Source: an uncultured Candidatus Micrarchaeota archaeon
GTDB lineage: Archaea > Micrarchaeota > Micrarchaeia > Norongarragalinales > Norongarragalinaceae
Length of the DNA stretch: 45,157 nucleotides
Assembly (NCBI GenBank): GCA_903893865.1
Contig: CAITNU010000060.1
Location: forward strand, 1-45,157
Direction: 5' to 3'
The notes under the pieces were generated by a model. It saw only the letters and a list, made by a program, of their open reading frames with translations, did not search any database and was not told the origin of the DNA. The position numbers and the translations under genes are program-made. Each line of letters begins with the position of its first letter. Position 1 is the first letter of the stretch. Below, in pieces: positions 6,447 to 38,076 of the stretch.

Positions 6447-6477
6447 CGAGGATAAAAAGAAAAGATGAATTTTACGA

Positions 6478-21428: not shown

Positions 21429-22217
21429 TCATCTCGCGAACGGGTTGAAGCGATGAAGAAACGTCAGAAGCCTGCCGACAAAGCTGCGTGAGTGCTGCGC
21501 GTGGCGAAGCGGCGAGCGCGTTATTTCCTCGGCGAGTTCCACGAATTTCAGCGCTACTTCGCTGTCCGGAAAACGCACGGTCAACGGCTGCTGCAGGCTA
21601 ATGCTCAACGGCACGACTTCGTCCTCGGGAATGCTCGACAGCACGCGGTAGTTCGTGAGCGCTTCGACTTCTTTCTCCGGCAATTCGTAAGCCTTGTGGT
21701 GAACGCGGTTGAGCACGAGTCCGAGGATTTTCACGTTGTTTTTTTCGGCGAAAGCAATGACTTTGTTCGCGCTCGTGATGCTCGGCAAGTCGGGCGTTGT
21801 AACGACGAGAACTTCGTCGCAGTTGGTTATTACTTCCTGAACGTACTCCAAAACGCTTGGCGGCGAATCAATCATTACGAACTCGTACGCTTCAAGATCG
21901 CGCAGCAAACCCTTGAAGTTTTGAATGGGAACGCGGTAACTCGGTTTCAGCGACGCGGGCAGGATTTTAAGCGAGCTTTGCGGGTGGTCTATTACCGCGT
22001 CGTCCAACGCGATTTTGTTTCCCAAGACGTCTTGAAAGCCGACGTGCATCGACGCGAAGCCGACGTGCAGCCCAACGCTGGGATTCTGCACGTCCGAATC
22101 AATGAGAATCGTCTTTATTCCTTCTCGCGCGAGAAGTATGCCGAGGTTTACGGCTGTGACGGTTTTGCCTACGCCGCCTTTTCCCGATACTACGCCGATG
22201 ACTCGGTTGCGCTTCAT
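21429..22217 (-). CDS. minD: MinD/ParA-family P-loop ATPase (archaeal MinD type)
   Basis: Deviant Walker A GVVSGKGGVGKT, Walker B-like FVMIDSPP. 262 aa. No CxxC, so not Mrp/NBP35-type. The C-terminal FVGRLLTFLHRFNPFAR is potentially an amphipathic helix. Confidence 0.88.
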   Translation of the reverse strand: MKRNRVIGVVSGKGGVGKTVTAVNLGILLAREGIKTILIDSDVQNPSVGLHVGFASMHVGFQDVLGNKIALDDAVIDHPQSSLKILPASLKPSYRVPIQNFKGLLRDLEAYEFVMIDSPPSVLEYVQEVITNCDEVLVVTTPDLPSITSANKVIAFAEKNNVKILGLVLNRVHHKAYELPEKEVEALTNYRVLSSIPEDEVVPLSISLQQPLTVRFPDSEVALKFVELAEEITRSPLRHAQHSRSFVGRLLTFLHRFNPFAR

Positions 22218-22390: not shown

Positions 22391-24208
22391 TCACGGTTTT
22401 TCGGTTTTCTCGTCGCCGAAAACTATGCGGCGCAGCGAGTTCGCATAAAGCACCCGGTCCTTGTTGTAAAACCTCGTTTCGCTCCTCGCCGAACGCCGCC
22501 AGTAAACCACAGCGATGAGCGCGATAAGCGCGAGTAGCGCGACGATGAGCCCGAGCGTAACGCCGTTCAAAGTGAACGTTATCGGAATAATCATCAACGA
22601 CATGGTTGTAGAAACCTCCTCACTCATCGCCGAAACAACCGCGCGCGCCGAGTAACCGCCCGCCGCTGCGTCCGCGTTCGCGGTTACTTCGAAATCGAAT
22701 TGCTGCGTCGTGTGCGGCGCTAGCACCACGTTGCTTATCGTGCGCGGGTCTGCAGTGAATTCAGGCGACAAAGCGAGGGAAGCAGTAACCTGCATCGGCG
22801 CTAGCCCGCCGTAGAAAACAGAGAAAGACGCCGAGCCTTTGCTTCCGGGCGAAAGCGTGGGCAAACGGAAGTCGGTAATCGTCACGAGGTCAGCCAACTG
22901 CATTTTGCGGGAAGTCGTCACCTGCTTCGTCGTCCACGCTCCGTAAACCGAGTAATCGTCGCTGAGAGTCTTGAGTTGGTACGTTACAGAGCGTTTGCCT
23001 TCTGGTTCGAGCTGGAGGAAACGCCAAGCGAGAGTCAACGGTTCGTCAGACAAGTAGCTCCCTATGGAGTCTTGAAACAAGACGTCGTTTTCGGTTGCCG
23101 CGAGAGGCGAAGGAACCGCGTCGACGACGTCGACTACGTCGAGAGTCCGCGTAATCGACGGGTTGCGCACGCTCAAAACAATGTTAGTTGTCTTCGCTGC
23201 AGTGTCGAGGCTAATGCGTCGAAGCACTATCGGGTTCTCGTAATTTGCTGGGTACGCTTTAACTCGCAGGAAAAAGTATTCAGTAGTGATGTCCGCGCCG
23301 GTCAAGTCGTCTACTACGCTCACGCGCACGACGTAATCACCAGGCGTCGCGTCCGCGGAAATCCACAGCGCGAAGTCGATTGAACTCGCGGCGGACGGCT
23401 GCAAAAAAATTTTTTTAGGCGTCACCTGCGGCGTGCCCTTCGGCAACCCGGCGAAGCGCAACGTCGCCGCGACCGGCTCGCTCCCGTCGTTCTGGAAGTG
23501 CAGAGTCAGCAGTGCGGCTTCGCCAGCCAAAACTTCCTGGAGCACGGTTTTTTTGGAGAAGGAAACAACGCCGATAATCGGCCGCACGTGAGGCGGAATC
23601 GTAGTCGGCCCACCCGGTTTTACGGGCGCGGGGCTCGCCAGCGGCGTGGGCGACGCGGCGCCGCCGCCTCCGCCTCCTTGCGGCGTCGGAGTGGGCGTCG
23701 GAGTCGGGGTAGGCGTCGGCGTATAGTTTCCCACGATAGAAAACGAGGCGGTGAACGCGTTCGTGTGATTCGCTCCGCCGCCGTAAACGCCGGTAGCGTT
23801 CACTAAATAGTTTCCTTCGGGAAAGCCAGCGCTGTTCCACGTCGTCGTCAGCGTTACTATCGAGCCTGGCGTGACGTTCGCGGTAGTGTAATTAAATACG
23901 TAGACTTCATCGCCGGTGGCGTTCGTTATGGATGCGTTCAGATCGAGCGCGTCCTCTAAATTTCCCCTATTTTCGACTGTCACGGAAAAATCCGCAGTAG
24001 TTCCCGCGTGAATGGCGTTAGGCGTGATAGTGAACGCGGTCAGCGTGAGGTTCGACAATCCTTCGACGCTAATGGTTGCCGCGGAAGGCGCGTCTCCTGC
24101 CGCGGAGCCAGATAAAACTAAGACGAAAGCTATTGGCAGCATTATCAGCAAAGCTGGATTCGAACGATAACTCAAGCGCAAGCGTGGAAGCAACGCGATG
24201 GGAGTCAT
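22391..24208 (-). CDS. surface protein with CARDB/NEW3-like beta-sandwich domains, TP-repeat linker and C-terminal TM anchor
   Basis: The ORF is open to GTG 24220. ATG 24208 lies about 26 nt downstream of TTTAAATA. Signal/TM LLIMLPIAFVLVLSGSAAG. FSVTVENRGNLEDALDLNASI is CARDB-like. Linker is (TP)7 followed by QGGGGGG. C-terminal helix is GVTLGLIVALLALIALIAVVYWRR plus a ~45-aa cytoplasmic tail. Confidence 0.85.
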   Translation of the reverse strand: MTPIALLPRLRLSYRSNPALLIMLPIAFVLVLSGSAAGDAPSAATISVEGLSNLTLTAFTITPNAIHAGTTADFSVTVENRGNLEDALDLNASITNATGDEVYVFNYTTANVTPGSIVTLTTTWNSAGFPEGNYLVNATGVYGGGANHTNAFTASFSIVGNYTPTPTPTPTPTPTPQGGGGGGAASPTPLASPAPVKPGGPTTIPPHVRPIIGVVSFSKKTVLQEVLAGEAALLTLHFQNDGSEPVAATLRFAGLPKGTPQVTPKKIFLQPSAASSIDFALWISADATPGDYVVRVSVVDDLTGADITTEYFFLRVKAYPANYENPIVLRRISLDTAAKTTNIVLSVRNPSITRTLDVVDVVDAVPSPLAATENDVLFQDSIGSYLSDEPLTLAWRFLQLEPEGKRSVTYQLKTLSDDYSVYGAWTTKQVTTSRKMQLADLVTITDFRLPTLSPGSKGSASFSVFYGGLAPMQVTASLALSPEFTADPRTISNVVLAPHTTQQFDFEVTANADAAAGGYSARAVVSAMSEEVSTTMSLMIIPITFTLNGVTLGLIVALLALIALIAVVYWRRSARSETRFYNKDRVLYANSLRRIVFGDEKTEKP

Positions 24209-24230
24209 GTCATAAAACACGTGCGCCAGG

Positions 24231-24340: not shown

Positions 24341-25066
24341 TCACTTCTTGCGTTTCTTGGCGAAGACGAAAAAGTAAGCGAGCAAAACAATGACGAGCGC
24401 CACGAGCGCTATCGTCGAAAGCACCCAAGCGTCGAGCGGAGGCAACTGAAATCCGTTGTTTTCAACCGGTTTCTCGGAATACTCCTTCGTGACTACGCGC
24501 ACTTCGTAAATGAACTCGCGCACTTGCTTTACGGAAATAGGTCCCGTCGAACCCACGTCGAACCAGCCTGCAACGGCAGAAACGCGGAGCTTGTACGTGC
24601 TCCACAACGGCGCGTCTGCGGGCGCAGTCAAGCGAATCGTGACGACTTGCGCTGGAACGAATCCTTCAACGCCGCCCATGGTCACGTACTCCACGCCTTC
24701 AGGAACGCTTTCAGGTTTTTGTTTCGGGAGCGTGCTTCGCGGCGTGACTTTCGCCACCAAGTTTTCCTGCGTTTCGACGACGATGCCGGAAATGTTGTAA
24801 GAAGCGTTGTGCACGGCAGGAATTAGTTCCGCTGTAAAGCCGTTCGGAATTTCGGATAAGGCGAGCGAAACGTGCGTGTCGCGGTTGCCGTTCACGTTGA
24901 AGAAGTAAAGCTTTGCTTCAGCGGTTTTTCCCGGCTCTACTGCGATGAACTTTTCTGCCTGCATCGTCCCGAAATTGTATTCGCCGCCTTCAGCGCGCAA
25001 CAACGGCGAAAAAAGGCTCGCAAAAGCTAGCAGCGCGATGACGCTAAAAGTAATCCTGTCAGTCAT
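24341..25066 (-). CDS. surface protein with signal peptide and C-terminal TM anchor plus KKRKK tail, function unknown
   Basis: The ORF track extends to 25174, but that extension overlaps the upstream stop and runs through a T-tract terminator. ATG 25066 gives MTDRITFSVIALLAFASLFSPLLRAEG, a classic signal peptide. The C-terminus is WVLSTIALVALVIVLLAYFFVFAKKRKK. Confidence 0.75.
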   Translation of the reverse strand: MTDRITFSVIALLAFASLFSPLLRAEGGEYNFGTMQAEKFIAVEPGKTAEAKLYFFNVNGNRDTHVSLALSEIPNGFTAELIPAVHNASYNISGIVVETQENLVAKVTPRSTLPKQKPESVPEGVEYVTMGGVEGFVPAQVVTIRLTAPADAPLWSTYKLRVSAVAGWFDVGSTGPISVKQVREFIYEVRVVTKEYSEKPVENNGFQLPPLDAWVLSTIALVALVIVLLAYFFVFAKKRKK

Positions 25067-25112
25067 GCTTTTCCCCGCTGGTCCCCACCGTTCATTAAAA
25101 AACCGAGAAAGC

Positions 25113-25140
25113 CAAAAAAAAATCAAAAAAAACAAATAAA
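25113..25140 (-). terminator. oligo-T terminator after the 25161..25715 gene
   Basis: The minus strand reads TTTATTTGTTTTTTTTGATTTTTTTTTGG, beginning about 20 nt after the stop codon. Confidence 0.5.
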
Positions 25141-25160: not shown

Positions 25161-25715
25161 TTAGCCGACGTCAAGGAACTTGATGTAAATCGAGCCCGTG
25201 TAAGTGCCTTTAGGCAAATCAGCGGGAATCGTCACGTTGAAATACATGTTCCTGTCTTCCGCGCTTCCGACCGGCGCGGCAATGCTCACCCAGTCAGTGT
25301 AGTTTGAGCTGGAGCAGGCGCCCGATGTGAACGCCGCTAGGAAAGAGGTGAGGCACGAGCCGGAGGTTCCTGAGTTGTTCGTGTAAGTGATGTTTTGCTG
25401 ACCGAATATTACTGAACCGTTCGCAAAATTCGTGCTGTTCACTGAAATCGTGACAACGGTGTTCGTTGCGGTATTAATGGTCATTTCACATTGCTGCGTG
25501 TCCGAACGCGTTCCATTGTTTGTTCCAGGCGAGAAGCCAGTTCCAAGATTTATAGAAGAACAGTTGATTGTAGTGTCGACTACTCCGGTTACGGTCAGCG
25601 ACGCGCTGCTAGCGTTGTCCGCGGCTGCTAATGAAACCAAGCTGTTTTGATTAAAACTGAAAGCTAAAGCGAACACTACGGCAGCCAAAACCAAAAACCA
25701 CTTTGAGTTAATCAT
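25161..25715 (-). CDS. small N-terminally anchored or secreted protein, stand-alone paralogue of the giant protein's C-terminal domain
   Basis: The ORF track starts at TTG 25742. ATG 25715 has GGAGG about 10 nt upstream and gives MINSKWFLVLAAVVFALAFSF.... The mature part aligns with residues ~3458-3601 of the 3601-aa protein (TINCS.[IL]NLGTGF[ST]PGT.NGTRSDTQQC, NNSG..GSCLT, SGAC, K.TYTG.IY.K; four conserved Cys). Confidence 0.8.
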   Translation of the reverse strand: MINSKWFLVLAAVVFALAFSFNQNSLVSLAAADNASSASLTVTGVVDTTINCSSINLGTGFSPGTNNGTRSDTQQCEMTINTATNTVVTISVNSTNFANGSVIFGQQNITYTNNSGTSGSCLTSFLAAFTSGACSSSNYTDWVSIAAPVGSAEDRNMYFNVTIPADLPKGTYTGSIYIKFLDVG

Positions 25716-25830: not shown

Positions 25831-25840
25831 TATTTATAAA
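25831..25840 (-). promoter_or_regulatory. strong TATA box (TTTATAAATA on the minus strand) upstream of the small paralogue gene
   Basis: Located about 115 nt upstream of ATG 25715, in the 198-nt spacer after the giant gene. This implies an independent promoter with a ~90-nt leader carrying the GGAGG site. Confidence 0.4.
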
Positions 25841-25913: not shown

Positions 25914-28900
25914 CTAGTGCTTCACCGCTTTGACGTAAATTGTGCCGGTGTAAGTCTTCTTCAACTGGTTTTGCGGCACGTTTACGAAGAAGAAAACGTC
26001 GCGGTAAACTGCCGATACCGGTTTAGGGATGTTCACCCAGTTCGTGTAGTTCACTAGGGTTCCAATCTGGCAAGCGCCGGACTTGAAGAAAGGAGACAAT
26101 TCGGTTAGACAAGAACCAACTGCGCCCGAGTTGTTGGAAACCGTTATGTTAGCGACTTTAAGCACGCCTCCTGCGCCCGATAAGTCGCTGCCGTTCAACG
26201 ATAAATCCACTGCCACGTTCGTGTTGCTTGAAATCGTCACCTGGCATTGCTGCGTGTCAGAACGCGTTCCGTTCGCGGTGCCAGGCGTGAAGCCGGTTCC
26301 GAGATTCAAGGCGGAACAATTGATGGTCATGTCTATGATTTCCACGTGGGATATCGTGAAGTAGTAGTAAGTCAAGTTGCTGCCCCAATGGCCAACCGTA
26401 TCGTTTACGTAGACGGTGAAATTCGCTTCGCCGTCAGGCTGGCTCGTCACGTTGAAGTAACAATTCGTTCCGCTGCGAGTCATAGTCAAATTAACGTTCG
26501 TACTATTCGGGTAAACGTAGTTGAGCAAGCAAGTGTCGGGATTCGTTTCAGTGAAAGTCACGTTGATATAGGAATAATTGTAGTCTTGGGTGGAACCGTT
26601 GAGGGGAGTGGGATTAACGTAGATTATGCTCGCGGGCGCAGTCTTGTCTATCGTGATGTTCCGCGTTTCAGTCTTGTTTTGGTTCCCAGATTGGTCGACA
26701 GCGAAACCGTAGTAATCGTAAACTCCGTCGCTCAAGCTCGTAAAATTGTTTTCGAGACGGTACGCGCTGTTGTTGAAGGAAGCGTTGATTTCCTGTTCTG
26801 AAAGCGAGCGGTTCCAAACCCGAATTTCATCCAACGCGCCAGTAAACCAATTGTCACCCTTACCAAAATACATATAGTCGCCAGAATCGCTTATCGCACC
26901 ACTGGTTTCTTTACTCACGTCCGAAACGCCGTTCAAGTAAATCGACAAGTAAGTGGAATTGAATACGGCGGCAACATGATACCACGTGTCGTTGGAAAGC
27001 GCGGTGGCGCCAGTCACATCCTGTGAAGGCAAATCCGGCACTTGAAAATAAATTTTGCGTTCAGAATTGAGACGAACGTCCCAGTCACCAGCCCGATAAA
27101 CCAAATCCTCGTCTCCGTACGAGCCGCGGTAAGGATACTTAACCCAAAAATCTATTGAGAGCGCGCTGCTGATGCTGTTTAAACTATCAGAATTAGGAAC
27201 TTGAATTTCGTCATCGTTTCCGTCGAATTGAGCGCCGCAGCCGAACCTGCCAGCACAAGTCCAGTTTTCGCTTCCTTCAGGGTAAAGCGTTCCGTTGTTG
27301 CCCCATGTGCTGTTATCGTACGCCGTAGCTCCAGAGCCTTCCTCGAAACTCCAGTAACCGATTAGCGAGCGGTTCCAATCAACGAACGCACCGCCAGGAT
27401 TCGCGTCGGTCACACTGACGTTCACGTAAGCGTAATCGTAGTTCGTCAAGTTATTGTTCGGCGGCGTAGGGTCAACGAACGCGGGCGTCGGCGGAGTGAC
27501 GTCAGCCAGCTTGCTGAAAGATTGGAACTCGTCAAATTCTTTGAAACCATAATCTCCGCAATCACCACCACCTGACCGAGTATCAAAAAGAATTTTCAAG
27601 TATTTTCCCGTTGCGGCCGTAAACGAGCAATTATACCAAGCTAAGCCGCTGCCGATTAACTCGCAACTGCCTAAACTGTCGCCCCAATTCGCTGGATCGT
27701 TGGAAACATAGATTTCTGAAACCGCGCATACATTGCTGTCCTTGTCAGGCGCAGTGTAAATTTGGAGTTTAGAGTGCGTGTACAGCGTGCAATACTCGTA
27801 AGCAATCCAGTGCTGTTCTTCGGCAGAGTGTCCCCACCGGGTACTGGTGTCGTTGTCGATGGTGTTCGTTGCAGGGCTATCACCTTCTTCGCCGCACTTA
27901 TCGTAAACCGCGTGCGGCGTAACCCAGTTCCAGAGAGACGTGAAAGTCAATGCTTGTTGTTCGCTTACGCCCCAGTTTCCCGCGCTGTCGTTAACCCACA
28001 TTCTATAAACGTAATCCCCGCTGTCGGTCAGCGTCGCGTTGTAGTAACAATTCGTTCCAACTCGCGTCGCCGAATAATTCGAGTCGTTGATTTCAAGCAA
28101 GCAGGAATCCGGGTTCGATTCGGTGAAAGTGACGTTAACGTAAAAATAGTCTTGCGTTAAATTAGAGTTGTTGACGGGAGTAGGACCGACGTAAACGATG
28201 TTCGACGGCGGAGTCACATCAATAGTAAACCCGTACTGCGACAAATTACTACCCCAATTACCAGCACTATCGTTAACGTAAACAGTAAAATTCGCCTGCC
28301 CATCACCCTGCGTCGTAACATTAAAATAGCAATACGCAGCCACACCCGCCGCCTTCGTCATCGTTAGGTTGACGTTCGTGCTGTTCGGATAAACGTAATT
28401 CAACAAGCAAGTGTCGGGATTCGATGCCGTGAACGTAGCATTAACGTACGAGTAATTATAATTGCGCCAAGAATTGTTTGCAGGCGTTGGCGAAACGTAA
28501 GCGATACTCGACGGCGGCGAGATTATAGTGAGCGTCCTGTTGTTCGACCACGCTACGTTGCCGGCAGAATCATCGCATCTCGCGCCCCATATGAATGTTG
28601 CTTGAGTTAAGCCGGATATCGAAGCATTCCACCACGTATCGTTTAATAAACCGCCACTGCTCTGCTCGCTTCCAAAACCACTTGTTGGTTCAGGAGAAAC
28701 AAACTTACGAATGAATGTCCAGTCTATTTTTTGAGTGCCGGTTCCCGCCTTTTGATACCAATGATGTAGGTTATAACTTCCTGTAGGAACATTACTTGTT
28801 ACTACTGATTCACTTCCATCATCCAGAGTATGTGAGACTGTCGTTGAATTTCTTCTTACTTCAATAACGTGATAAGCTCCAGCAAAAGCGGTCACTTGTG

Positions 28901-31900
28901 TCTGTGAATTAGCACCATTCGTAAATGCTCGTATATAATAGTTATATGGAGAACCATAATATCTAATTACCGTGGCGCCATAATCGCCAGTTGTTGGACT
29001 GTTATATAATACTTCTCCAGCTCCTTTATTCCACCAACCAAAACCTTGCTCGAGATAACTTCCTCCTTCATTATACCAGTTTACACTTGACCTTAAAGCG
29101 TAATCGTATCCGAGAGTTGTTGTTCTAGCGGCAGAAGCAGCTGAAGTGCCGTTTGGGTCTAATGTAAGAATTCCTCCAGAAACTGAACCAAGAGTTAAAC
29201 TCCAACCAGTTGAATCGTCCCAAGTAGTAGAACCATCAACACCAGTATTAGTTATATTGCTTGCACTTGAAGCGCCGGCGTTGCCGTAATACATGTAGAA
29301 AGTGTAGTTGGTCGTCGTAATGTTTTGGTCTACTTCAACCCAGACTATAGCCCAGTTGCCGTCGCTCTTGTTCTCAAGCCAGTAATCTAATTGAGTGTTT
29401 TCAGAGCCGTTATAAAACCTTAAATCAGAAAAATCACTTTTCATATCAGAATCATAAGTTACGTTTAATTTTACTTGATAATTCGTTCCCGTGTAACCGC
29501 TTGAGACAGAAACATTTATTGGTTTCTTCCGGCTAGAATTAGTTGCTTTCACTTGCCAAGTTCCGGTGTCATTTGCCCATATTTGTAAAGTGCTTAGGCC
29601 AACGTTATCAGAACATTTCGAGTCAAACACTACCGTTGAGCTTGACGAATTATAATTGTCAACGGGATTCGTTCCGAGCGAAACTGTTGGTGCAGTCGTA
29701 TCTATCGTGATAGCCCGCGTTTCCGTCTTGTTCTGGTTCCCAGCAGCATCAACCGCAAAACCATAGTAACTGTAATTACCATCACTCAACCCAGTGAAAT
29801 TGTTTTCCAAACGGTACAAACCGTTGTTGTAGGACGCGTTGATTTCCTGTTCCGAAAGCGTGCGATTCCAAATCCTAACTTCATCAATCACACCACTAAA
29901 CGCAGTAACCGAATAAGCGCCTTCATACCGCCCAATAGTAACGTTGTCAGAAATCGATTGAATGCTATTACAAACCTCTCCAGCTACGCTGTCGCTGTAA
30001 TTAGTCCAATTCATCAAGTTTCCGTTAACCCAAATACTAACGTTTCCCGTACCAGCATTAAACACTCCAACCAAATGAGTCCAAGTATTAGCCGTCAAAA
30101 CAGTCGGAGAAGTAGCGTCACACCGAGTATAAGAAGGACTATTCTTTTCTATGACCGCCATTGCCGGTTTTCCGTCACTACCAATTTCAATACGATACGC
30201 TTCAACGTCTCCACCAGCGCCATTCACTTTCCCAACCACCAAACCTCGACCGCTATCCGCCGGGTAAACCCAAGCCTCGAGAGTCAAATTACCAGTAATA
30301 CTCAAACTAGAAGCGTTAAGACAATTCACGAAATCATCATTATTATCGAAACTCAAACCGTAACCAAATTTACCGCTCGAGTTGTAAGTCGGGCCATTAG
30401 TCAACGCACCATTATTCCCATAACTCGAATTATCAAAAGCAGTCGTCCCACTGCCTTCACTGAAAGCCCAGTAACCCACAAGCGAGCGATTCCAATCAAT
30501 GAATGCTGCACCCGGATTCAAGTCAGTAACGCTAACATTCACGTAAGCATACTTGTTTTTCGTCAAATTACTGTCAGGCGGAGTCGGGCCAACGAACGCC
30601 GGAACAGGCTTCGTCATGTCAATGTAGAACTTGTACGTCGAGAGATTGCTGCCCCAATTCCCAGCTGAATCGTTGACGTAAACCGTGAAATTCGCCTGCC
30701 CATCACCCTGAGTCGTAACGTTGAAATAACAATACGTACCGGTTCCAGCTGCTTTAGTCATCGTTAAATTCACGTTCGTCGAATTCGGGTAAACGTAGTT
30801 AAGCAAACACGAATCCGGATTTGATTCAGTGAAAGTCGCGTTAACGTACGAGTAATTATAGTTTTGGTAAGAATTGTTTGACGGCGTGGGACTAACGTAA
30901 GCAATACTCGCAGGCGCAGTCGTGTCGACGTAAAACTTGTAAGTCGTCACGTTCGAACCCCAATTGCCGGCAGTATCGTTCACGTAAACCGTGAAATTCG
31001 GTTGACCGTCACCCTGAGTCGTAACGTTTTTGTAGCAGTACGCGGCTGCGCCCGCTGCTTTCGTCATCGTTAAATTCACGTTCGTGCTGTTCGGATAAAC
31101 GTAGTTTAACAGGCACGAATCGGGATTCGTTTCAGTGAACGTAGTATTGATGTAAGCGTAAGCGTAACTCTGGTAAGAATTGTTTGAAGGCGAAGGACTA
31201 ACGTAAGCAATGCTCGCGGGCTTCGTCACGTCAATCCTGAAACTATAAGTCGACACGTTCGAACCCCAATTTCCCGCCGAATCGTTCACGTAAACCGTGA
31301 AATTCGGTTGCCCATCACCCTGCGTCGTAACGTTGAAATAACAATACGCGGCTGCGCCCGCTGCTTTCGTCATCGTCAAGTTAACGTTCGTTGAATTCGC
31401 GTAACGATAATTCAACAAGCAAGTGTCTGGATTCGTTTCAGTGAAACTCGCGTTAACGTAAGAATAATTATAGTTTTGAAGCGAATTGTTTGACGGAGTC
31501 GGACTAACGTAAACAATACTCGCAGGAGCAGTCCGATCAATATAAAACTTGTACGTCGACACGTTGCTACCCCAATTTCCAGCAGTATCGTTCACGTAAA
31601 CCGTGAAATTCGCCTGCCCATCACCCTGAGTAGTAACGTTGAAGTAGCAGTACGCGGCTGCGCCCGCAGCTTTCGTCATCGTCAAGTTAACGTTCGTTGA
31701 ATTCGGGTAAACGTAATTCAACAAACACGAGTCAGGATTAGTTTCGGTGAACGTGGCGTTAATGTACGAGTAATTATAATTCCTGAAAGACGCGTTCGCC
31801 GGACTCGGAGTAACATAAACAATACTCGCAGGCGCAGTCTTATCAATAGTAAAACCATACTGCGACAAATTCGAACCCCAATTACCTGCCGAATCATTCA

Positions 31901-34900
31901 CGTAAACAGTAAAATTCGCGTAACCAGCAGGCTGATCACTAACATTAAAATAACAATACGGCGAAGAACCCGTAACCTTCGTCATCGTCAAATTCACGCT
32001 CGAAGAATTCGAATAAACATAATTCAACAAACACGAATCAGGATTAGCTTCCGTAAAAGTCACATTAACGTACGAATAATTATAATTCCTGAAAGACGCG
32101 TTCGCCGGACTCGGAGTAACATAAACAATACTCGCCGGCTTTGTCGTGTCGATGGTAAACCCGTATTGTGACAAGTTACTACCCAAATTACCGGGAGTAT
32201 CATTCACGTAAACCGTAAAATTCGCGTAACCATTACCTTGAGTAGTAACGTTGAAGTAACAATTCGTTCCGCTCGCCTTTGCTGTCAAATTCACGTTCGT
32301 CGAATTCGGGTAAACGTAGCTGATTATGCACGAGTCGCTTGGATTCGCTTCCGTGAAAGTAACGTTAATGTAGGCGTAAGCGTAATTCCGGAAAGAACCG
32401 TTGAGCGGCGTCGGAGTAACGTAAGCGATGCTTGATGGCGCAGTCTTATCAATAGTAAAACCATACTGCGACAAATTCGAACCCCATCTGCCTTGCGAGT
32501 CATTAACGTAAACCGTGAAATTCGCGTAACCAGCAGGCTGGTCAGTAACGTTAAAATAACAATAACGCGCACCGCCCGTTCCAACCACTAGCGTCATCGT
32601 TAAATTCACGTTCGTCGAATTCGGGTAAACGTAGTTCAACAAGCAAGCGCTGGGACTCGCTTCCGTGAACGTCACGTTAATGTAAGAATAATTATAGTTC
32701 TGAATAGAACCATTCAACGGACTCGGAGTAACATAAACAATACTCGCAGGAGCAGTCGTGTCGACGGTAACAGTGTAGTTCACGTTGCTCCTGTTGCTTA
32801 ATGACACGTCGCCGTTGTCCCAACACTCGACGTTACACAAGTAAATGCCTTCCGCTGCGAACGTGTAGTTGATGCCGTTCACGGTATTGTTCGCGATGCT
32901 GCTTGTGCCGTTCCAATTCGTTTGATTTAAGCTCGTGCCGTTGCTGTAAAACAAAAGCGTCGTGCAGTTCTTGAAGCCCGAGTTGTCTATTGGCGTGAAA
33001 GTGAAGTTGACGTTTGCCGAGGCGCTGGTCGTGCCGTTGGACGGCGCGCTCAAGCTCACGTTCGGCGCGGTGTTCGCGTAACTCGCGAAAATCGCGCTGT
33101 AGTAGGATGGAGTCATGTCGGTGGTGTTGATGCCAGTCCAGTAAATGGCGTGGTAGTGCGTGGCGGAGGAATAATTGGTTGTTGCCCCTGAGGCCTTGTA
33201 GTTCACGCCTGCCGTAGCGCTGGCGGCGGTTTTGTCGGTCAGGGCAGTGTGCGTGTGGCTAGCGTTGCTGGTAGTAATTAAGGTGCCGTAAGCGCTCGTC
33301 GCGTACAAAAACTTTTGGTAAAAGTCGTCCGCTGATGAAGCGGAGCGCGAAGTCCATTCGACGGGCGGAGTCGCGTTCCACAACGCGTACATTCCGTTGG
33401 GCACGGGGCGAGTGTCGTTCAGGTAAGCAATAATAATTTTCGACGTAACTGGCACCGCTTCGATTGCAGTCGTCGTTCTGGAGGCTGAAGTGTTCGCCTC
33501 GTGCGTGTGCACGCCATTAGCAACAGATGCCGTGGTGGTGGAGGTCAAACCCGTGGCGTTGGAGGTAGTGGTCCACGAAATATTCCACGTGTGCGTGTGA
33601 GTCCAACTCCCGCCAGTCACTTGAGCCGTCGCGTTGCCGCGAATGTAGTAGCCGTCCGCGGCGCTGAACCGCGTCCAGTTCGCGGGCAAACTAGTCGTGT
33701 TGAAGAACGCGATTACGCCTGAGGGAAGCGTTGCGGGAAGCCCGCTCGTGTTACAGCGAATTACGAGGAAGTCGTAGTAAGGCGGAAAATTCGAGGCGGT
33801 CGTGTTAGCGGTGTACATTACCTTGTGCGCGTGAGTCGCGGGCGCGCCAGTGTTCGTAGTGACTGTAGAAAGAGTTCCGGCTGAAGCCGTACCCAGGAAG
33901 GCCTGGTAATTGTGTGCGTGGTAATCGCTTCCGCCGCTCCCGCCGTAAGTCGCGTCAGGCACGATGAATTTCCGGTAAAACGGGTCGGTAGCGTAACAAG
34001 AAATGCACGTCCACCCGCTCGGAACGTTAGCAAGAGTGTTGTTAAACAACAAAATCATGTGCGCGTTGCTGGCGTCGTTGTAAGCGAAAACGCTTTGTCC
34101 GCCGAAATCGAAGCGCAGAACGTGCCGCCGCGCTTTCAACACCTTGCTGTTTTCGCTGGCAGTCTCGTTGCACGAGTAATTCGGAACGACAACGCTGCAC
34201 TCGTTTTCCGCGCAGTTTGCGCCGCGCCACTCGTACGGCACTAGCCGGTCCCCGCAACGGATTTCGAGGAAGCGCAGGTCGTAAAGCGTTTCGTTCTCGC
34301 TTGAATCGCTCCAACGCGTGTAATTCTCGGTGTAATTCAAGTCGCGCGTTGCGGTAATCGTTAAATCCGCCGCTCCGTTCGTCTCGAAATTAACCGTCCA
34401 GTTGCCGTAAAGCTGCGGGTGCGAGTGAACGTTCAAAATCGTTATGTTGATGCCGAAAGACTGGTTGTCCGTTAATTCGGGTATCACCCACGATATTTCG
34501 TGCACGAAACCGTTCGAGTCGCCGTTCGTGGCTTTGAAAACAAGTTTTTTCACGAGAAAACCGTTCTCGCTGATTTCGCGCAACTCATCGTCCGTCAAGT
34601 TCAAGCCGCTCAAGTTTTGGCTCGCCGATAAAACCCACGATAATTCGATGTCGTCGAGATTGTTTACTTCAACAGGAAGTGAAGCGTAAACACTCACGTT
34701 CTCGTAATGCATTGGCGCGGTTACGACGACGCGCTTGGAACCGAAACCCGTTTGTTCCTCGCTTGCTTGCGGAGCGCCCGTATAGTATTCGACTTCGAGT
34801 TCGCTGAAATCGCCTCTGCCGCCTCGAACGCGCAAACCCTTCGCGCCGCGCACAGCGCTTTTGACGCCTGTTTCAGTAGCGTTTTCGGCGCCGTTCTCGG

Positions 34901-36719
34901 CACCGTTTTCGACGAGTTTCTCGGCATTGTTTTCGAGCGCGACTTCGGAAACGCTTAAATCTGTCCAGTCGAGAGTTTGGGACGCTTGAGCTGTTTCCGT
35001 TTCAACGCTTTCCGCTCCAGCAAATTGCACTATTTGCGCAGCCGCAACAGCGCCAACTCCTTCAGTGCTGTTTGCTTCAACAGTTGCTTCAGCCGCGCTG
35101 GCAGGCGTTTCAGGCGTGGTGTTTGCAATCGCTTCAGTAGCGGTCGCAAGCGCAGGCGCTTCGGGTGCAACGGCATATGCTGGAACCGCGTAATCCGCGT
35201 TAGCCAGCGTCGCGTTTTGCGCTTCGGGCGGCAACGCCACGACGAAATCGCGCGCGCGTTCTCTCAAAACGATTTTCTTCGTCCACTTGACTGGCTTGCC
35301 AACAGCCGCGTTGGCTTGCTCGGTTGTTTCTGAAGCGACTTCGACGTTCGCGTTGTATTCAGGCGTAGGCAAAGGCGAGAGCGAAGGAGTCGCGGTAGGC
35401 TCCGAAGCGTTGACACGAATAGAGCGCGACTCGTTAGCGCAATCAGCGCCCGGCAAGCTGCCGTAAAAAGCGACGACGTTGATGTCGTAAACACCTTCTG
35501 CAGCATAAGAGTGGTTTCCAGTAGATTCAGTCGTCCACGCCCACGGCGGCTCGGAATCAGAAAGCGTCAGTTCACTCGAGTTCGAGCCGTCACCCCAAAA
35601 AACGATGACGTGGTAATTCTTTTGATTTTGGTCGAGGAATGGTTCGAGAACTCCGTAAACGGATAATTCGTCGCCTACGACTACCTCGCTTTCGTCTTGC
35701 TGGCTAAAAACGCTTAATCCAGTAACGTTTAATCCGGTTTTCTTGCAGCCGAACTCGTTTGGCGCGATCGGCGAAGGCACCGCTTCAGGCGAAGGTGAAG
35801 ACGAAGTTTCCGGCGAAGCTTCGAGTGAAACGCTTGGCTCGGGCGTTGGTTCGAGAGTGACGACTTCAAACGACGGTTGCGGGCACGCGGCGGGCGTAGG
35901 ACAAGCGTTAGACGATGGAGTCGGCGTGGCGTTTGCTTGACTAATCGAGAAAACGACGCGCGTTGCGCCGTAGTAATCGTTTTTGCTTGCTTCAACGAGA
36001 GCTTCGTAATCTCCTTGCGTTGAAGCGTAAAAGCGTTGCTCGAAAACGCCTTCATCGCTCCCCGCTGTTGAGTAAAAACCGTTTTCGGAACCCGTAATCG
36101 TGATGTTGACTTCGGCGAACGGAACGCTTTGTTGAGCGAATGAAACGCTTCCGGCGACAGCGTATTCTCCCGGCGTTTCTTCAGGCTTCGTCAGCGCTGC
36201 ATCGACGACGAGATTTCCTTCATGGTAATAGAACGCTTTTTGCGTCGAACCAGTCTTGTTTTCTGCGTTCGCAGTAACGCTCAGCAAATAAACTCCGGCT
36301 GGCGCTTCGCTTGGCAGCGTCACGCTTGAATCAAGCGCGCTTCCAGCAGTTAAAGTAAAATTGTATTCGTACTGTGCGCCGCGCATTTCGATGAAATAAG
36401 CGATTTCGCTCGACTCGTTCTCGAGTCCCGAGACGCGCGCTGAAAAACTAACGGGCTCGCCCATGAATTCATGGTATTCGACCGAAAGCGTTACGCCCAG
36501 CGCGCCAGGCGGGTTTTCGAAGAATAAGGCGCCGCCGCCCTGCTGCCCGCCGCTAAGCGGCGAAAGCAAGTCAGGGCGGCGCGCGAGCGCGGCGTGAGGC
36601 GCGAGAGCAAAAAATTCGCAAGCCGAAAAGCCGACTGCGAACAGCAAGGCTATTGCTAGCATCGCTTTCGCTGTCTTCCGTTCGGGTTTGAGCGCTTTCA
36701 AGCGCGTTACTGCTCCCAC
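25914..36719 (-). CDS. giant (3601 aa) secreted mosaic surface protein / putative adhesin
   Basis: Uninterrupted 10.8-kb ORF with a GTG start. N-terminal signal (KTAKAMLAIALLFAVGFSAC). Domains recognised by eye:
- PKD-like domain (VFWGDGS...GNHSYAAEGVYDINVVAF)
- Acidic Ala/Glu/Thr low-complexity region
- Three tail-collar-like units, each with two HxH motifs
- At least 10 copies of a ~100-aa Ig-like repeat
- Two LamG/ConA-like modules (WNRSL[VI]GYW.F.EGSG... [IL]DE[VI]R[IV]WNR[ST]LSEQEINAS)
- DUF2341 (DLRFYNGSENTQLDYWLE...WVEV...YMYYGN) plus a ConA-like jelly roll ending IDWTFIRKFVSPEP
- F5/8-type-C (discoidin)-like domain (TIDNDTSTRWGHS..QHWIAYEY)
- Cys-containing C-terminal domain
There is no C-terminal TM segment. 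N-x-S/T sequon density is extremely high. Confidence 0.95.
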   Translation of the reverse strand: MGAVTRLKALKPERKTAKAMLAIALLFAVGFSACEFFALAPHAALARRPDLLSPLSGGQQGGGALFFENPPGALGVTLSVEYHEFMGEPVSFSARVSGLENESSEIAYFIEMRGAQYEYNFTLTAGSALDSSVTLPSEAPAGVYLLSVTANAENKTGSTQKAFYYHEGNLVVDAALTKPEETPGEYAVAGSVSFAQQSVPFAEVNITITGSENGFYSTAGSDEGVFEQRFYASTQGDYEALVEASKNDYYGATRVVFSISQANATPTPSSNACPTPAACPQPSFEVVTLEPTPEPSVSLEASPETSSSPSPEAVPSPIAPNEFGCKKTGLNVTGLSVFSQQDESEVVVGDELSVYGVLEPFLDQNQKNYHVIVFWGDGSNSSELTLSDSEPPWAWTTESTGNHSYAAEGVYDINVVAFYGSLPGADCANESRSIRVNASEPTATPSLSPLPTPEYNANVEVASETTEQANAAVGKPVKWTKKIVLRERARDFVVALPPEAQNATLANADYAVPAYAVAPEAPALATATEAIANTTPETPASAAEATVEANSTEGVGAVAAAQIVQFAGAESVETETAQASQTLDWTDLSVSEVALENNAEKLVENGAENGAENATETGVKSAVRGAKGLRVRGGRGDFSELEVEYYTGAPQASEEQTGFGSKRVVVTAPMHYENVSVYASLPVEVNNLDDIELSWVLSASQNLSGLNLTDDELREISENGFLVKKLVFKATNGDSNGFVHEISWVIPELTDNQSFGINITILNVHSHPQLYGNWTVNFETNGAADLTITATRDLNYTENYTRWSDSSENETLYDLRFLEIRCGDRLVPYEWRGANCAENECSVVVPNYSCNETASENSKVLKARRHVLRFDFGGQSVFAYNDASNAHMILLFNNTLANVPSGWTCISCYATDPFYRKFIVPDATYGGSGGSDYHAHNYQAFLGTASAGTLSTVTTNTGAPATHAHKVMYTANTTASNFPPYYDFLVIRCNTSGLPATLPSGVIAFFNTTSLPANWTRFSAADGYYIRGNATAQVTGGSWTHTHTWNISWTTTSNATGLTSTTTASVANGVHTHEANTSASRTTTAIEAVPVTSKIIIAYLNDTRPVPNGMYALWNATPPVEWTSRSASSADDFYQKFLYATSAYGTLITTSNASHTHTALTDKTAASATAGVNYKASGATTNYSSATHYHAIYWTGINTTDMTPSYYSAIFASYANTAPNVSLSAPSNGTTSASANVNFTFTPIDNSGFKNCTTLLFYSNGTSLNQTNWNGTSSIANNTVNGINYTFAAEGIYLCNVECWDNGDVSLSNRSNVNYTVTVDTTAPASIVYVTPSPLNGSIQNYNYSYINVTFTEASPSACLLNYVYPNSTNVNLTMTLVVGTGGARYCYFNVTDQPAGYANFTVYVNDSQGRWGSNLSQYGFTIDKTAPSSIAYVTPTPLNGSFRNYAYAYINVTFTEANPSDSCIISYVYPNSTNVNLTAKASGTNCYFNVTTQGNGYANFTVYVNDTPGNLGSNLSQYGFTIDTTKPASIVYVTPSPANASFRNYNYSYVNVTFTEANPDSCLLNYVYSNSSSVNLTMTKVTGSSPYCYFNVSDQPAGYANFTVYVNDSAGNWGSNLSQYGFTIDKTAPASIVYVTPSPANASFRNYNYSYINATFTETNPDSCLLNYVYPNSTNVNLTMTKAAGAAAYCYFNVTTQGDGQANFTVYVNDTAGNWGSNVSTYKFYIDRTAPASIVYVSPTPSNNSLQNYNYSYVNASFTETNPDTCLLNYRYANSTNVNLTMTKAAGAAAYCYFNVTTQGDGQPNFTVYVNDSAGNWGSNVSTYSFRIDVTKPASIAYVSPSPSNNSYQSYAYAYINTTFTETNPDSCLLNYVYPNSTNVNLTMTKAAGAAAYCYKNVTTQGDGQPNFTVYVNDTAGNWGSNVTTYKFYVDTTAPASIAYVSPTPSNNSYQNYNYSYVNATFTESNPDSCLLNYVYPNSTNVNLTMTKAAGTGTYCYFNVTTQGDGQANFTVYVNDSAGNWGSNLSTYKFYIDMTKPVPAFVGPTPPDSNLTKNKYAYVNVSVTDLNPGAAFIDWNRSLVGYWAFSEGSGTTAFDNSSYGNNGALTNGPTYNSSGKFGYGLSFDNNDDFVNCLNASSLSITGNLTLEAWVYPADSGRGLVVGKVNGAGGDVEAYRIEIGSDGKPAMAVIEKNSPSYTRCDATSPTVLTANTWTHLVGVFNAGTGNVSIWVNGNLMNWTNYSDSVAGEVCNSIQSISDNVTIGRYEGAYSVTAFSGVIDEVRIWNRTLSEQEINASYNNGLYRLENNFTGLSDGNYSYYGFAVDAAGNQNKTETRAITIDTTAPTVSLGTNPVDNYNSSSSTVVFDSKCSDNVGLSTLQIWANDTGTWQVKATNSSRKKPINVSVSSGYTGTNYQVKLNVTYDSDMKSDFSDLRFYNGSENTQLDYWLENKSDGNWAIVWVEVDQNITTTNYTFYMYYGNAGASSASNITNTGVDGSTTWDDSTGWSLTLGSVSGGILTLDPNGTSAASAARTTTLGYDYALRSSVNWYNEGGSYLEQGFGWWNKGAGEVLYNSPTTGDYGATVIRYYGSPYNYYIRAFTNGANSQTQVTAFAGAYHVIEVRRNSTTVSHTLDDGSESVVTSNVPTGSYNLHHWYQKAGTGTQKIDWTFIRKFVSPEPTSGFGSEQSSGGLLNDTWWNASISGLTQATFIWGARCDDSAGNVAWSNNRTLTIISPPSSIAYVSPTPANNSWRNYNYSYVNATFTASNPDTCLLNYVYPNSTNVNLTMTKAAGVAAYCYFNVTTQGDGQANFTVYVNDSAGNWGSNLSQYGFTIDVTPPSNIVYVGPTPVNNSNLTQDYFYVNVTFTESNPDSCLLEINDSNYSATRVGTNCYYNATLTDSGDYVYRMWVNDSAGNWGVSEQQALTFTSLWNWVTPHAVYDKCGEEGDSPATNTIDNDTSTRWGHSAEEQHWIAYEYCTLYTHSKLQIYTAPDKDSNVCAVSEIYVSNDPANWGDSLGSCELIGSGLAWYNCSFTAATGKYLKILFDTRSGGGDCGDYGFKEFDEFQSFSKLADVTPPTPAFVDPTPPNNNLTNYDYAYVNVSVTDANPGGAFVDWNRSLIGYWSFEEGSGATAYDNSTWGNNGTLYPEGSENWTCAGRFGCGAQFDGNDDEIQVPNSDSLNSISSALSIDFWVKYPYRGSYGDEDLVYRAGDWDVRLNSERKIYFQVPDLPSQDVTGATALSNDTWYHVAAVFNSTYLSIYLNGVSDVSKETSGAISDSGDYMYFGKGDNWFTGALDEIRVWNRSLSEQEINASFNNSAYRLENNFTSLSDGVYDYYGFAVDQSGNQNKTETRNITIDKTAPASIIYVNPTPLNGSTQDYNYSYINVTFTETNPDTCLLNYVYPNSTNVNLTMTRSGTNCYFNVTSQPDGEANFTVYVNDTVGHWGSNLTYYYFTISHVEIIDMTINCSALNLGTGFTPGTANGTRSDTQQCQVTISSNTNVAVDLSLNGSDLSGAGGVLKVANITVSNNSGAVGSCLTELSPFFKSGACQIGTLVNYTNWVNIPKPVSAVYRDVFFFVNVPQNQLKKTYTGTIYVKAVKH
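30612..32756 (-). repeat. seven tandem in-frame ~300-312-bp coding repeats (residues 1322-2036 of the giant protein)
   Basis: Unit consensus: T[AK]PASI[VA]YV[ST]P[ST]P.N.S..NY.Y[SA]Y[IV]N.[TS]FTE.NPDSCLLNYVYPNSTNVNLTMTKAAG...YCYFNVT.QGDGQ.NFTVYVND[ST]AGNWGSN[LV]S.Y.F.ID. Units share identical nucleotide strings longer than 30 nt (e.g. TTTCGTCATCGTCAAGTTAACGTTCGTTGAATTCG at ~31367 and ~31667). More diverged copies lie at 28212..28523, 27930..28211 and 26346..26645. Confidence 0.9.
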
Positions 36720-36834: not shown

Positions 36835-38076
36835 GTGAAAAACGCAAACGCTGACGCAGCCGCCGAACAAAAAATTTTTTTCGAGGAAGACTACTCGCTG
36901 GAACGCAGCTTCACTTTCCAAGATTCGAAGGCAAAAGCGTTTTACAACTGGTTTTACTACAAGGAAGCGTTCGCGCCGGAATTCGTTGATTACGCGCTGC
37001 GGCGCTTCGCGGTCAAGCCGAACGCGCGCGTTCTCGACCCGTTTTGCGGAGTCGGAACAACGCTGCTCGCTGCAAAAGAAAACGGTTTCGCGAGCTCTGG
37101 CGTTGACGCGAGCCCGTTGTGCGTGCTCGCGAGCCGCGTCAAAACGCGCGATTACGGTGATGCCCTAAAAGAATCAGTATCGGCGGCGTTCAAACGCGTC
37201 TGCAAAGCGAAATTCGAATTCCCGAAGGAAGAATGGCGTTTCGAATTGTTCGACCCGCGCCGTGCGCTGCCGCGAGGCAGTTACGACGAGGCGCTGCACT
37301 TGCGGAAACAAGTTCGGGAAACTGAACCAAAAGAAGCACGCGAATTCCTCGCGCTCGCACTCGCGGCCGCGCTTCCCGAAGCGGCGCTAGTCGTCAAGGA
37401 CGGCGGCGTCCTAAAAATCGCGAGGCACAAAAAACATATTCCGTCGTTGCGGCAGGCGTTCGAGCGCCGCGCCAAGCGAATGCTGCGCGACCTCGCCACG
37501 CCGGTAACGGGACCAACACCCGAAGTCGTCGCGGGTGACGCCCGCCAGTTGCCTTTTGAGGACGATGCGTTCGATTGCGTTATAACTTCACCACCTTACT
37601 TGAACGGCGTCGATTACTCGAAAATCTACGGACTCGAACTAAGCCTGCTTTTCGGCGAAAACGCGGCGCTGGAATACCGCCGCAGCGCGCTGCGTTCGTT
37701 CATTGAACGCGACGCGCGCACTGCGCGGGAAAGCGAGGACGCGAAAATCGCGGAGCGCTGCTTGCGGAAAAGCGAAAGCGAGCTTGCGGCAGGCGTTCCT
37801 GATATTGCTTTGGCGTACTTGACTGACATGACGCGCGCTTTCCGCGAGACGAAACGCGTTCTGCGCGGCGGAGGCAAAGCCGCTTTCGTCGTGGGCAACG
37901 CCGTGCTGTCGGGCGCTTACGTCGCAGTCGACGAAGTCTTCGCGCTCATCGCACTCGAACTTGGTTTTGGCAAAGCCAAAATCGTTGTGGGTTCCGAGCG
38001 CGTGGCCGATGTGAGCACCGAGCGCGGCGCGGAACGCCGCAGAGTGCGCGAGAGCGCGGTAATGCTCGAGAAATAA
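36835..38076 (+). CDS. SAM-dependent N6-adenine/N4-cytosine-type methyltransferase (SPPY motif), no adjacent restriction gene
   Basis: Motif I VLDPFCGVGTTLLAA at about residue 66, preceded by a motif-X-like helix. Motif IV VITSPPYLNGVDY at about residue 250. About 180 aa separate the two motifs (candidate target-recognition region). Neighbours are the giant surface gene (divergent) and ftsZ (convergent). Confidence 0.8.
   Translation: MKNANADAAAEQKIFFEEDYSLERSFTFQDSKAKAFYNWFYYKEAFAPEFVDYALRRFAVKPNARVLDPFCGVGTTLLAAKENGFASSGVDASPLCVLASRVKTRDYGDALKESVSAAFKRVCKAKFEFPKEEWRFELFDPRRALPRGSYDEALHLRKQVRETEPKEAREFLALALAAALPEAALVVKDGGVLKIARHKKHIPSLRQAFERRAKRMLRDLATPVTGPTPEVVAGDARQLPFEDDAFDCVITSPPYLNGVDYSKIYGLELSLLFGENAALEYRRSALRSFIERDARTARESEDAKIAERCLRKSESELAAGVPDIALAYLTDMTRAFRETKRVLRGGGKAAFVVGNAVLSGAYVAVDEVFALIALELGFGKAKIVVGSERVADVSTERGAERRRVRESAVMLEK

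Follow-up and report, generated by a model that had tools for sequence, protein, structure and literature searches.

How a very large, putatively adhesive protein is mounted on the cell that makes it is the question raised by this locus. The protein, referred to here as the giant, comprises 3601 amino acids (aa) and is encoded on the minus strand of a 45,157-nt stretch of DNA from an uncultured Candidatus Micrarchaeota archaeon (assembly GCA_903893865.1, contig CAITNU010000060.1), the whole of which we call the window. A first-pass annotation made from the DNA alone had described a mosaic of phage-fibre-like, lectin-like and immunoglobulin (Ig)-like modules ending in a unique C-terminal domain, and had implied a stand-alone adhesin. 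Our analysis revealed that the C-terminal domain (CT) is shared with the product of the next gene and that these two genes, together with two more encoding membrane-anchored proteins, form a conserved archaeal four-gene surface cassette. On balance, we favour the interpretation that this cassette has the giant as its adhesin cargo, mounted through CT.

The C-terminal domain is shared with a small neighbouring protein

The last ~145 aa of the giant are 51 % identical (BLASTP, E 9e-47) to the product of a 193-aa open reading frame (ORF) immediately downstream, so the domain had been called unique in error; an exhaustive profile search recovered a CT family of 76 representative clusters. CT occurs either as a stand-alone protein of ~160–200 aa with a signal peptide or at the extreme C terminus of proteins of ~250–3600 aa, in which the cargo N-terminal to it varies (beta-helix/NosD, CBM9, Big_3_5 or NPCBM_assoc). 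A third architecture, with two tandem CT-like domains, was observed in some family members of ~350–380 aa (P0036, P0042, P0045, P0055, P0059 and P0075). Scans of 46 family members produced no Pfam match to CT, and no second CT domain was found elsewhere in the window, for example in a 1170-aa beta-helix protein. A scan of the close CT alignment against the GTDB species genomes and JGI metagenomes returned no matches. Since there is no Pfam model and no description in the literature searched, we regard both the CT family and the cassette as new.

The AlphaFold2 (AF2) model of the small CT-only protein is confident (pLDDT 88, pTM 0.71) and presents CT as a beta-sandwich module. Paralogous CT domains within a locus are 39–68 % identical, vs 23–45 % between distant loci, and among close relatives the cargo-CT and small-CT sequences form separate orthologous lines. 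The greater similarity within loci would fit direct partners that co-evolve, or gene conversion that has recurred. In stand-alone members the mature N terminus bears a conserved A-S/T-V-T-V-N/S strand where cargo members have a (P)E-I/V linker instead, a difference judged by eye that a simple regular expression did not reproduce as a separation of the two groups. A similar pattern, x-V-x-V-x-E, was seen by eye at the mature N terminus of F609, the fourth protein of the cassette.

The small gene may also be expressed in its own right. A GC hairpin lies just past the stop codon of the giant gene and is followed by a TATA-like box, and the oligo-T runs 3′ of the small gene are possibly an archaeal terminator or attenuator; the promoter-like box and T-runs together would suit a more abundant subunit. 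The density of N-x-S/T sequons is 5.2 per 100 aa in the giant and 4.7 in the small protein, vs 0.7–1.3 in the two membrane-anchored cassette proteins and the S-layer protein of the window, a contrast in keeping with the giant and the small protein being the exposed parts. We considered and rejected a type IV pilin identity for the small protein, which has an ordinary Sec-type signal ending AAA↓D and, judged by eye, no class III prepilin signal.

A conserved four-gene cassette

The gene order is cargo-CT, CT-only, F241 (a ~240-aa anchored protein) and F609 (an anchored protein of ~450–610 aa), and it recurs, whole or in part, at no fewer than 12 other loci, i.e. at least 12 besides the window (the P0001 contigs L001–L003; L084; L089; L091; L092; L093/L094; and six JGI loci, L096–L101). 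Wherever the upstream gene is visible (7/7 loci), it ends in a CT domain. L100 contains exactly the four cassette genes between haem-biosynthesis genes of a low-GC archaeon, so that the cassette is self-contained and not restricted to Micrarchaeota. A MinD/ParA-type ATPase gene follows the cassette in the window and in L089 but is absent from L100, and therefore is probably not part of its core. F241 is the most conserved component (43–75 % identity) and returned no Pfam or PDB match. It was this arrangement, a CT module linking the giant to a small paralogue and to two membrane-anchored proteins, that the implied stand-alone adhesin had missed.

Lectin-type modules on a repeat stalk

The giant was scanned with Pfam both as a whole and in tiles, with matches judged against curated cut-offs, and its repeats were located with a profile built from the repeat itself. 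Most of the lectin-type modules named in the first-pass annotation were borne out. Laminin_G_3 (PF13385; LamG) matched two stretches (148 bits vs a cut-off of 27.6, E 3e-43; cores aa 2067–2307 and 3106–3325) that are 39 % identical to one another. Because the repeat profile finds two repeat copies split by these modules, each LamG is nested inside an Ig-like unit, an arrangement that is new. The expected discoidin-like domain exceeded the cut-off for F5/8 type C (PF00754) when scanned as a tile (33.2 vs 28.2 bits, E 6e-8); the whole-protein scan returned only F5_F8_type_C_2, below its cut-off. Of the suggested DUF2341 and ConA-like module, DUF2341 (PF10102) was recovered at aa 2429–2504 (nt 29208–29435; 48–52 bits vs a cut-off of 23.4, E 2e-12), whereas the ConA-like fold was not, aa 2505–2733 matching neither Pfam nor the giant's own LamG profile. 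An NCBIfam scan of the giant returned no family.

The ~102-aa repeats comprise ten complete copies (seven in tandem at aa 1322–2034, the others at aa 2735, 2836 and 3360) and the two split by LamG; Tandem Repeats Finder (TRF) reported a period of 306 nt and 6.9 copies. The earlier count of ten or more Ig-like repeats therefore stands, whereas the Ig fold of the canonical repeat reaches only a sub-threshold match (BIg21, 24.2 bits vs a cut-off of 27.4). Big_13 exceeded its cut-off (33.5 vs 27 bits) on the LamG-flanking copies only, and a PDB search with the repeat profile returned Ig domains at E 0.3–0.9 only, which is not significant. The reported abundance of sequons was upheld, with 189 in the giant vs 69±7 in composition-matched shuffles and ~9 per tandem repeat, at conserved positions.

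The two LamG modules, the discoidin domain and DUF2341 would thus be the lectin-type working parts of the protein, with the ~12 repeats, which are predicted to be heavily N-glycosylated, forming a stalk that spaces the modules apart. As read from its sequence, this lectin-on-stalk architecture is real; the cell–cell or cell–substrate adhesion proposed on its account is a function that we infer from it.

A three-unit tail-collar/HxH module shared with phages

N-terminal to the stalk are three tandem units previously labelled tail-collar-like and phage-fibre-like, a label that profile homology and the phage relatives described below support. Each unit, in the giant and in the small family retrieved with it, contains an invariant P, an invariant W and two HxH motifs, and runs from a G-x-I...P-x-G-W strand through GG..HxH to a C-terminal PPY..I strand, as in phage tail-collar/MdpB proteins. 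Unlike classical collar proteins, the units of the giant lack the TPDLRxRF segment, and Pfam Collar (PF07484) returned no direct match to the giant at E≤10 in whole-protein and tile scans. The unit profile (A3), searched against 5.8 billion proteins, nevertheless retrieved entries that are PF07484-positive or named 'microcystin-dependent protein' (E 6e-7 to 3e-4), and hhalign of A3 with a profile of Collar/MdpB proteins (A5) gave 98.3 % (E 1.6e-14) over the full unit, the A5 members having been found via A3, so that the comparison is not fully independent. On this profile evidence, the three units are homologous to the phage tail-collar/MdpB family, a module type that phages use in tail or receptor-binding proteins.

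The closest HxH relatives of the giant are encoded in the tail or structural modules of phages. The Actinoplanes phage phiAsp2 proteins Pas28 and Pas29 (L090, 6814–13532) have three units each (E 4e-48 and 2e-39) and are encoded directly after pas27, whose 978-aa product is annotated 'tail protein'; the annotation of Pas29 itself mentions HXHY motifs and a possible role in receptor recognition. P0081 (L102, 8001–9356; Logan SRR26541666) lies on a 65-kb contig with an SU10-type portal and a capsid gene. The 383-aa P0079 (L104, 2408–3559; GCA_030153585.1) combines DUF2341 with three collar/HxH units on a bacterial contig (IF-3, L20 and PheRS are encoded nearby), and so the pairing of the two is not unique to the giant. 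Exactly three units are present in 8/8 complete multi-unit relatives (the giant, P0079, P0080, P0081, P0084, P0085, Pas28 and Pas29). A three-unit collar/HxH module common to the giant and phage structural proteins is likewise new. In phage records the module seems to be unannotated, save for the remark on Pas29.

PDB searches with the HxH region returned nothing significant, whether the query was one sequence or a profile. Phage fibres with metal-binding HxH motifs include gp12 and gp37 of T4. In trimeric phage fibres, HxH pairs contributed by three chains bind Fe or Zn octahedrally (PMC11705849). Since all complete relatives have three units and the phage HxH pairs bind metal in trimers, the module of the giant is, by analogy, probably a single-chain pseudo-trimer that binds two metal ions via its six HxH motifs. 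It would differ from the phage fibres in that these are homotrimeric parts of a virion, whereas the giant carries the three units in one chain of a cellular surface protein.

Mounting of the giant on the cell

The giant has one hydrophobic segment (aa ~19–42), in agreement with the signal peptide described at first pass, and no other hydrophobic 19-aa window or candidate membrane segment. With no membrane anchor besides this N-terminal signal, it would probably be mounted via its C-terminal CT, which may pair with copies of the small CT-only protein. Beta-strand exchange between copies of the small protein would most likely give a short fibre that carries the giant at its tip, and the single-pass membrane proteins F241 and F609 may assemble or anchor the fibre base. 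This strand-exchange fibre is the leading sub-hypothesis within the reading we favour, although overall we hold it only tentatively and consider it somewhat unlikely.

Filaments of comparable design are known in archaea. In the tafi of haloarchaea, the tip protein TafC consists of a pilin-like and a laminin-G-like domain and TafF, the anchor, bears a transmembrane helix at its C terminus (PMC11821415, PMC12337348), while the threads of Sulfolobus involve the heavily glycosylated Saci_0406 and its paralogous cap Saci_0405 (PMC9715654). The small protein of the cassette, a predicted secreted beta-sandwich rich in sequons and with an N-terminal strand, is reminiscent of the subunits of tafi (TafA/E pilins), threads and cannulae (PDB 9h8b). 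The giant fuses a subunit-like domain to an adhesive part as TafC does with its laminin-G-like domain, and F241 and F609 resemble TafF in being encoded at the locus and having a transmembrane helix at the C terminus. Weak structural matches of the small-protein model in a Foldseek search of the PDB include chaperone-usher pilins (FimG, Caf1, CfaB, CsuA/B and FimA) and the Pyrodictium cannula subunit. However, no sequence homology was detected to the solved PDB chains of tafi, threads or cannulae; the cassette signals are of the Sec type rather than Tat, and the cassette has neither a TafD-like signal peptidase nor TafG.

Several observations weigh against a CT-mounted giant on a fibre. The pilin-like domain of TafC is N-terminal, whereas the subunit-like domain of the giant is C-terminal. 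No structure matched the small-protein model at E≤1e-3 in Foldseek (best E 3e-3, TM 0.3–0.5, with the N-terminal beta-sandwich of GH123 ranked first). As the only sequence-level PDB matches of CT are also to GH123_N (E ~3e-3), the resemblance to pilins may be generic beta-sandwich similarity. CT showed no homology to F241 or to the N-terminal CARDB-like domain of F609 (hhalign 1–2 %), and no dedicated chaperone, usher or TafD/SipW-type signal peptidase was found among the cassette genes and their flanks. If FSAC in the N terminus of the giant is a lipobox, the protein would be tethered there and CT would not be needed for mounting. For the proposed pseudo-trimer, the AF2 model of aa 880–1220, built from a 9-row alignment, had a pLDDT of 41.7 and is unusable, and positional orthology of units 1, 2 and 3 gave a diagonal signal among the phage-like proteins that is not clear for the giant.

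The N terminus could be read in two ways, FSAC being a candidate lipobox and AALA↓RR a candidate signal peptidase I site. The former reading leads to an alternative that we consider unlikely, in which the giant acts alone, as an adhesin or an S-layer-associated glycoprotein, and is held by an N-terminal tether (a lipidated Cys34 or an uncleaved anchor), CT is a distal carbohydrate-binding or structural sandwich, the small protein is soluble and no fibre is made. FSAC fits a lipobox, four other proteins of the window have clear lipobox signals and Ser/Thr/Pro linkers, the GH123 N-terminal beta-sandwich is the best match of CT in both structure and sequence, and giant LamG surface proteins are common in DPANN archaea with no fibre context (PMC5498576, PMC6642349). 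What a stand-alone adhesin leaves unexplained is why CT always occupies the extreme C terminus of otherwise unrelated cargo, why a CT-only gene, F241 and F609 follow it in every case, and why CT domains are more alike within a locus than between distant loci.

A second, similarly improbable alternative is a non-filamentous and non-covalent complex of the WxL/Csc kind in which the giant, lacking an anchor, would be kept on the cell by docking of CT to the ectodomains of F241, F609 or both. The gene logic matches: in both systems the same C-terminal (docking) domain is found on one large and one small secreted protein, the small one consisting of this domain only, and membrane-anchored partners with a signal peptide and C-terminal transmembrane helix are encoded alongside. 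Weak, sub-threshold matches of F609 to WxLIP_HBD (E 0.002) and of the small protein to WxLIP_PGBD (E 0.08) point the same way, but both are far under the cut-offs. We rejected CT as a WxL domain, as no WxL family was among the Pfam matches of the 46 CT-family members; moreover, WxL/Csc systems belong to Gram-positive bacteria, whereas Micrarchaeota are archaea and lack peptidoglycan, to which a WxL-type domain would bind. The N-terminal strand that only stand-alone CT proteins have and the promoter-like box and T-runs of the small gene also better fit an abundant polymerising subunit than a docking partner.

Mounting through CT as cassette cargo therefore remains the interpretation we favour. 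Its most elaborate form, which we regard as speculative and rather doubtful, is that the cassette represents an undescribed Sec-dependent class of archaeal fibre assembled by strand exchange, with interchangeable tip cargo; here the tip would be a 3601-aa glycoprotein in which a co-opted phage receptor-binding pseudo-trimer with two metal sites and the lectins seize a glycosylated host surface.

Integrity of the giant gene

The giant ORF occupies 25914–36719 on the minus strand and runs uninterrupted through 3601 codons plus a stop, as claimed at first pass. It starts with GTG, has an alternative in-frame ATG at residue 20 and is preceded by ~85 nt by a TATA-like TTTAAATA. Between the ~102-aa repeats, dN/dS is 0.08–0.21 and dS 0.7–2.6; the repeats are old coding duplications under purifying selection, and the gene as a whole is real and under the same constraint. 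An exact-sequence look-up of the protein returned no record.

One stretch, aa ~2050–2730, is anomalous in its codon usage, with a third-position GC content (GC3) of 0.19–0.48 vs 0.5–0.8 in the rest of the gene and ~0.6–0.7 in neighbouring genes. This block spans LamG module 1 to the end of the post-DUF2341 region, and both of its ends are module boundaries. Such a block, falling to a GC3 of 0.19 and ending at repeat or module boundaries in a gene with ~12 related repeats, might indicate that the assembly fused parts of two related genes, or sequence from two organisms, at the Ig-like repeats. We consider such an artefact highly improbable: the frame is open throughout, the repeat copies are at most 85 % identical in DNA with a longest exact internal repeat of 59 nt, and an ortholog fragment on an independent metagenome contig (L001) ends in the same ~102-aa repeat and CT domain, reproducing the 3′ architecture. 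Recombinational import of a foreign module cassette would equally give a low-GC3 block and would fit a mosaic gene; judged from the codon usage, the block could be such an import, with a mis-join the less likely explanation.

The N-terminal part and the coordinates of the locus

Upstream of the HxH units, the giant is less well characterized, and the first-pass assignments fared unevenly (Table 1). The beta-sandwich domains proposed for the N-terminal region gained no family support, as the tile scan of aa 47–324 returned only weak MG2 (E 0.035) and CarboxypepD_reg (E 2.7) matches. Nor was the PKD-like domain corroborated: no PKD family matched at E≤10 in the tile covering aa 280–500 and no PDB sequence matched aa 325–437, leaving a WGDGS...HSY...GVYDINV motif judged by eye. 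The acidic low-complexity spacer was confirmed by composition (D+E ~14 %) and contains a 12/24-nt tandem micro-repeat at 34880–34940. The Cys-containing stretch, with seven Cys in aa 801–1000, starts in the C-terminal part of the fold-unassigned region and runs into HxH unit 1.

Table 1. Features of the giant gene and of the adjoining cassette genes (nt positions in the window)
Feature	Coordinates	Strand	Residues	Basis and remarks
Predicted N-terminal signal peptide or anchor	36582..36719	-	1-46	Basic n-region, then MLAIALLFAVGFSACEFFALAPHAALA; sequence read
N-terminal region with no family match	35748..36581	-	47-324	Pfam tile scan
PKD-like-motif segment	35409..35747	-	325-437	Motif-level resemblance
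Acidic Ala/Glu-rich low-complexity spacer	34800..35408	-	~438-640	Composition in 200-aa bins
Fold-unassigned region	34065..34799	-	~641-885	No Pfam match in tile scan
Three tandem tail-collar-like HxH units	33072..34064	-	886-999, 1000-1104, 1108-1216	Unit alignment and profile search
Degenerate Ig-like repeat	32757..33071	-	~1217-1321	Weak repeat-profile matches
Seven tandem ~102-aa Ig-like repeats	30615..32756	-	1322-2035	TRF; repeat profile (E 1e-46 to 1e-55)
Ig-like repeat split by LamG module 1	29685..30614	-	2036-2345	Pfam and repeat profile
Atypical codon-usage block	28530..30572	-	~2050-2730	GC3 profile
Big_13-like Ig domain, DUF2341 and ~230-aa unassigned region (aa 2505-2733)	28521..29684	-		Pfam
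Two Ig-like repeats	27954..28520	-	2734-2922	Repeat profile
Discoidin (F5/8 type C) domain	27561..27887	-	~2945-3053	PF00754 tile scan
Ig-like repeat split by LamG module 2	26646..27497	-	3075-3358	Pfam and repeat profile
Last Ig-like repeat	26352..26642	-	3360-3456	Repeat profile
CT domain and stop codon	25914..26351	-	3457-3601	BLASTP vs neighbouring small protein
TATA-box-like TTTATAAATA	25831..25840	-		Upstream of small gene; read from sequence, putative promoter
CT-only small secreted protein	25161..25715	-	184 aa from ATG	9 sequons; BLASTP; AF2 model
Oligo-T runs (T8, T9, T6)	25095..25140	-		Directly 3′ of small gene, before F241; read from sequence
F241	24341..25066	-	241 aa	Signal peptide, FNFGTMQ motif, C-terminal transmembrane helix
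F609	22391..24220	-		Signal peptide, CARDB-like and NPCBM_assoc beta-sandwich domains, PT/G linker, C-terminal transmembrane helix
MinD/ParA-type ATPase	21429..22217	-		Syntenic in L089, absent from L100

Source organism and neighbouring genes

Besides a tRNA with an implied intron and two FtsZ genes, the window encodes an S_layer_C protein, RtcB and a split GMP synthase, and its RtcB shares 84 % identity with the RtcB of a Candidatus Micrarchaeota metagenome-assembled genome (MAG), with the next best at 58–59 %. This archaeal context, together with the RtcB identity, places the organism among the DPANN archaea, in a lineage with known episymbionts. Expansions of LamG proteins, proposed to serve host contact, have already been described in Micrarchaeota and other DPANN archaea (PMC5498576), and the episymbiotic lifestyle guessed at in the first-pass annotation fits both the taxon and this precedent.

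The tRNA was recognized by an Rfam match at 13618–13750 (-) in which a 71-position model is spread across 133 nt, implying an intron; ARAGORN made no call. The FtsZ paralogs lie side by side (38163–39254 and 39633–40700, both -). The S_layer_C family protein (931 aa, 42230–45025) has only 10 sequons. Divergent from the giant gene, and with a promoter region common to both, is a gene for a methyltransferase with an N6_N4_Mtase (DNA methylase) match (36835–38076, +). At the other end of the window, a 1170-aa secreted right-handed beta-helix protein with 58 sequons and no CT domain (1901–5413, +) is followed directly by an ABC-2 transporter pair (5442–7281, +). Lipobox-like signals (...GC), each followed by a Thr/Pro/Ser/Ala-rich linker, were found in the products of 8456–9682 (-), 11206–12270 (+), 12373–13485 (-) and 41313–41924 (-), which suggests that lipoprotein-type anchoring is widespread in this archaeon; the product of 11206–12270 also carries a BSP peptidase domain. 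Finally, a 345-aa ORF (15385–16422, +) has a GC content (0.447) and GC3 (0.46) below those of its neighbours and no Pfam match.

Relation to known DPANN surface proteins and implications

A LamG-bearing giant surface protein in a DPANN archaeon is of a kind already known. Like the giant proteins of Micrarchaeota Mia14 (PMC5498576) and the SPEARE proteins of Nanohaloarchaeota (PMC6642349), the protein described here is very large, is mostly extracytoplasmic and combines at least one laminin-G domain with other adhesion-type domains, for which a role in host contact has been proposed. It differs from SPEARE in that serine-protease, toxin and type III restriction domains are all absent, as are a transmembrane helix at the C terminus and a cytoplasmic part. 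We therefore rejected its assignment as a SPEARE protein, given that none of the defining Pfam domains is present and its only hydrophobic segment is N-terminal. What it adds to the DPANN giants is the collar/HxH triple module and a CT domain tied to a four-gene cassette.

Giant LamG proteins are the usual candidates for the means by which DPANN episymbionts physically grip their hosts. The context of CT is the main clue to the mounting of the giant and makes the question of DPANN adhesin mounting testable by multimer modelling, while the same cassette occurs outside Micrarchaeota with other cargo. If the proposed fibre is true, it would add a further family to the few archaeal strand-donation filaments known. 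The three-in-one collar/HxH module, for its part, suggests that viruses and cells can exchange a trimeric phage receptor-binding fold and that a single chain can reconstitute it.

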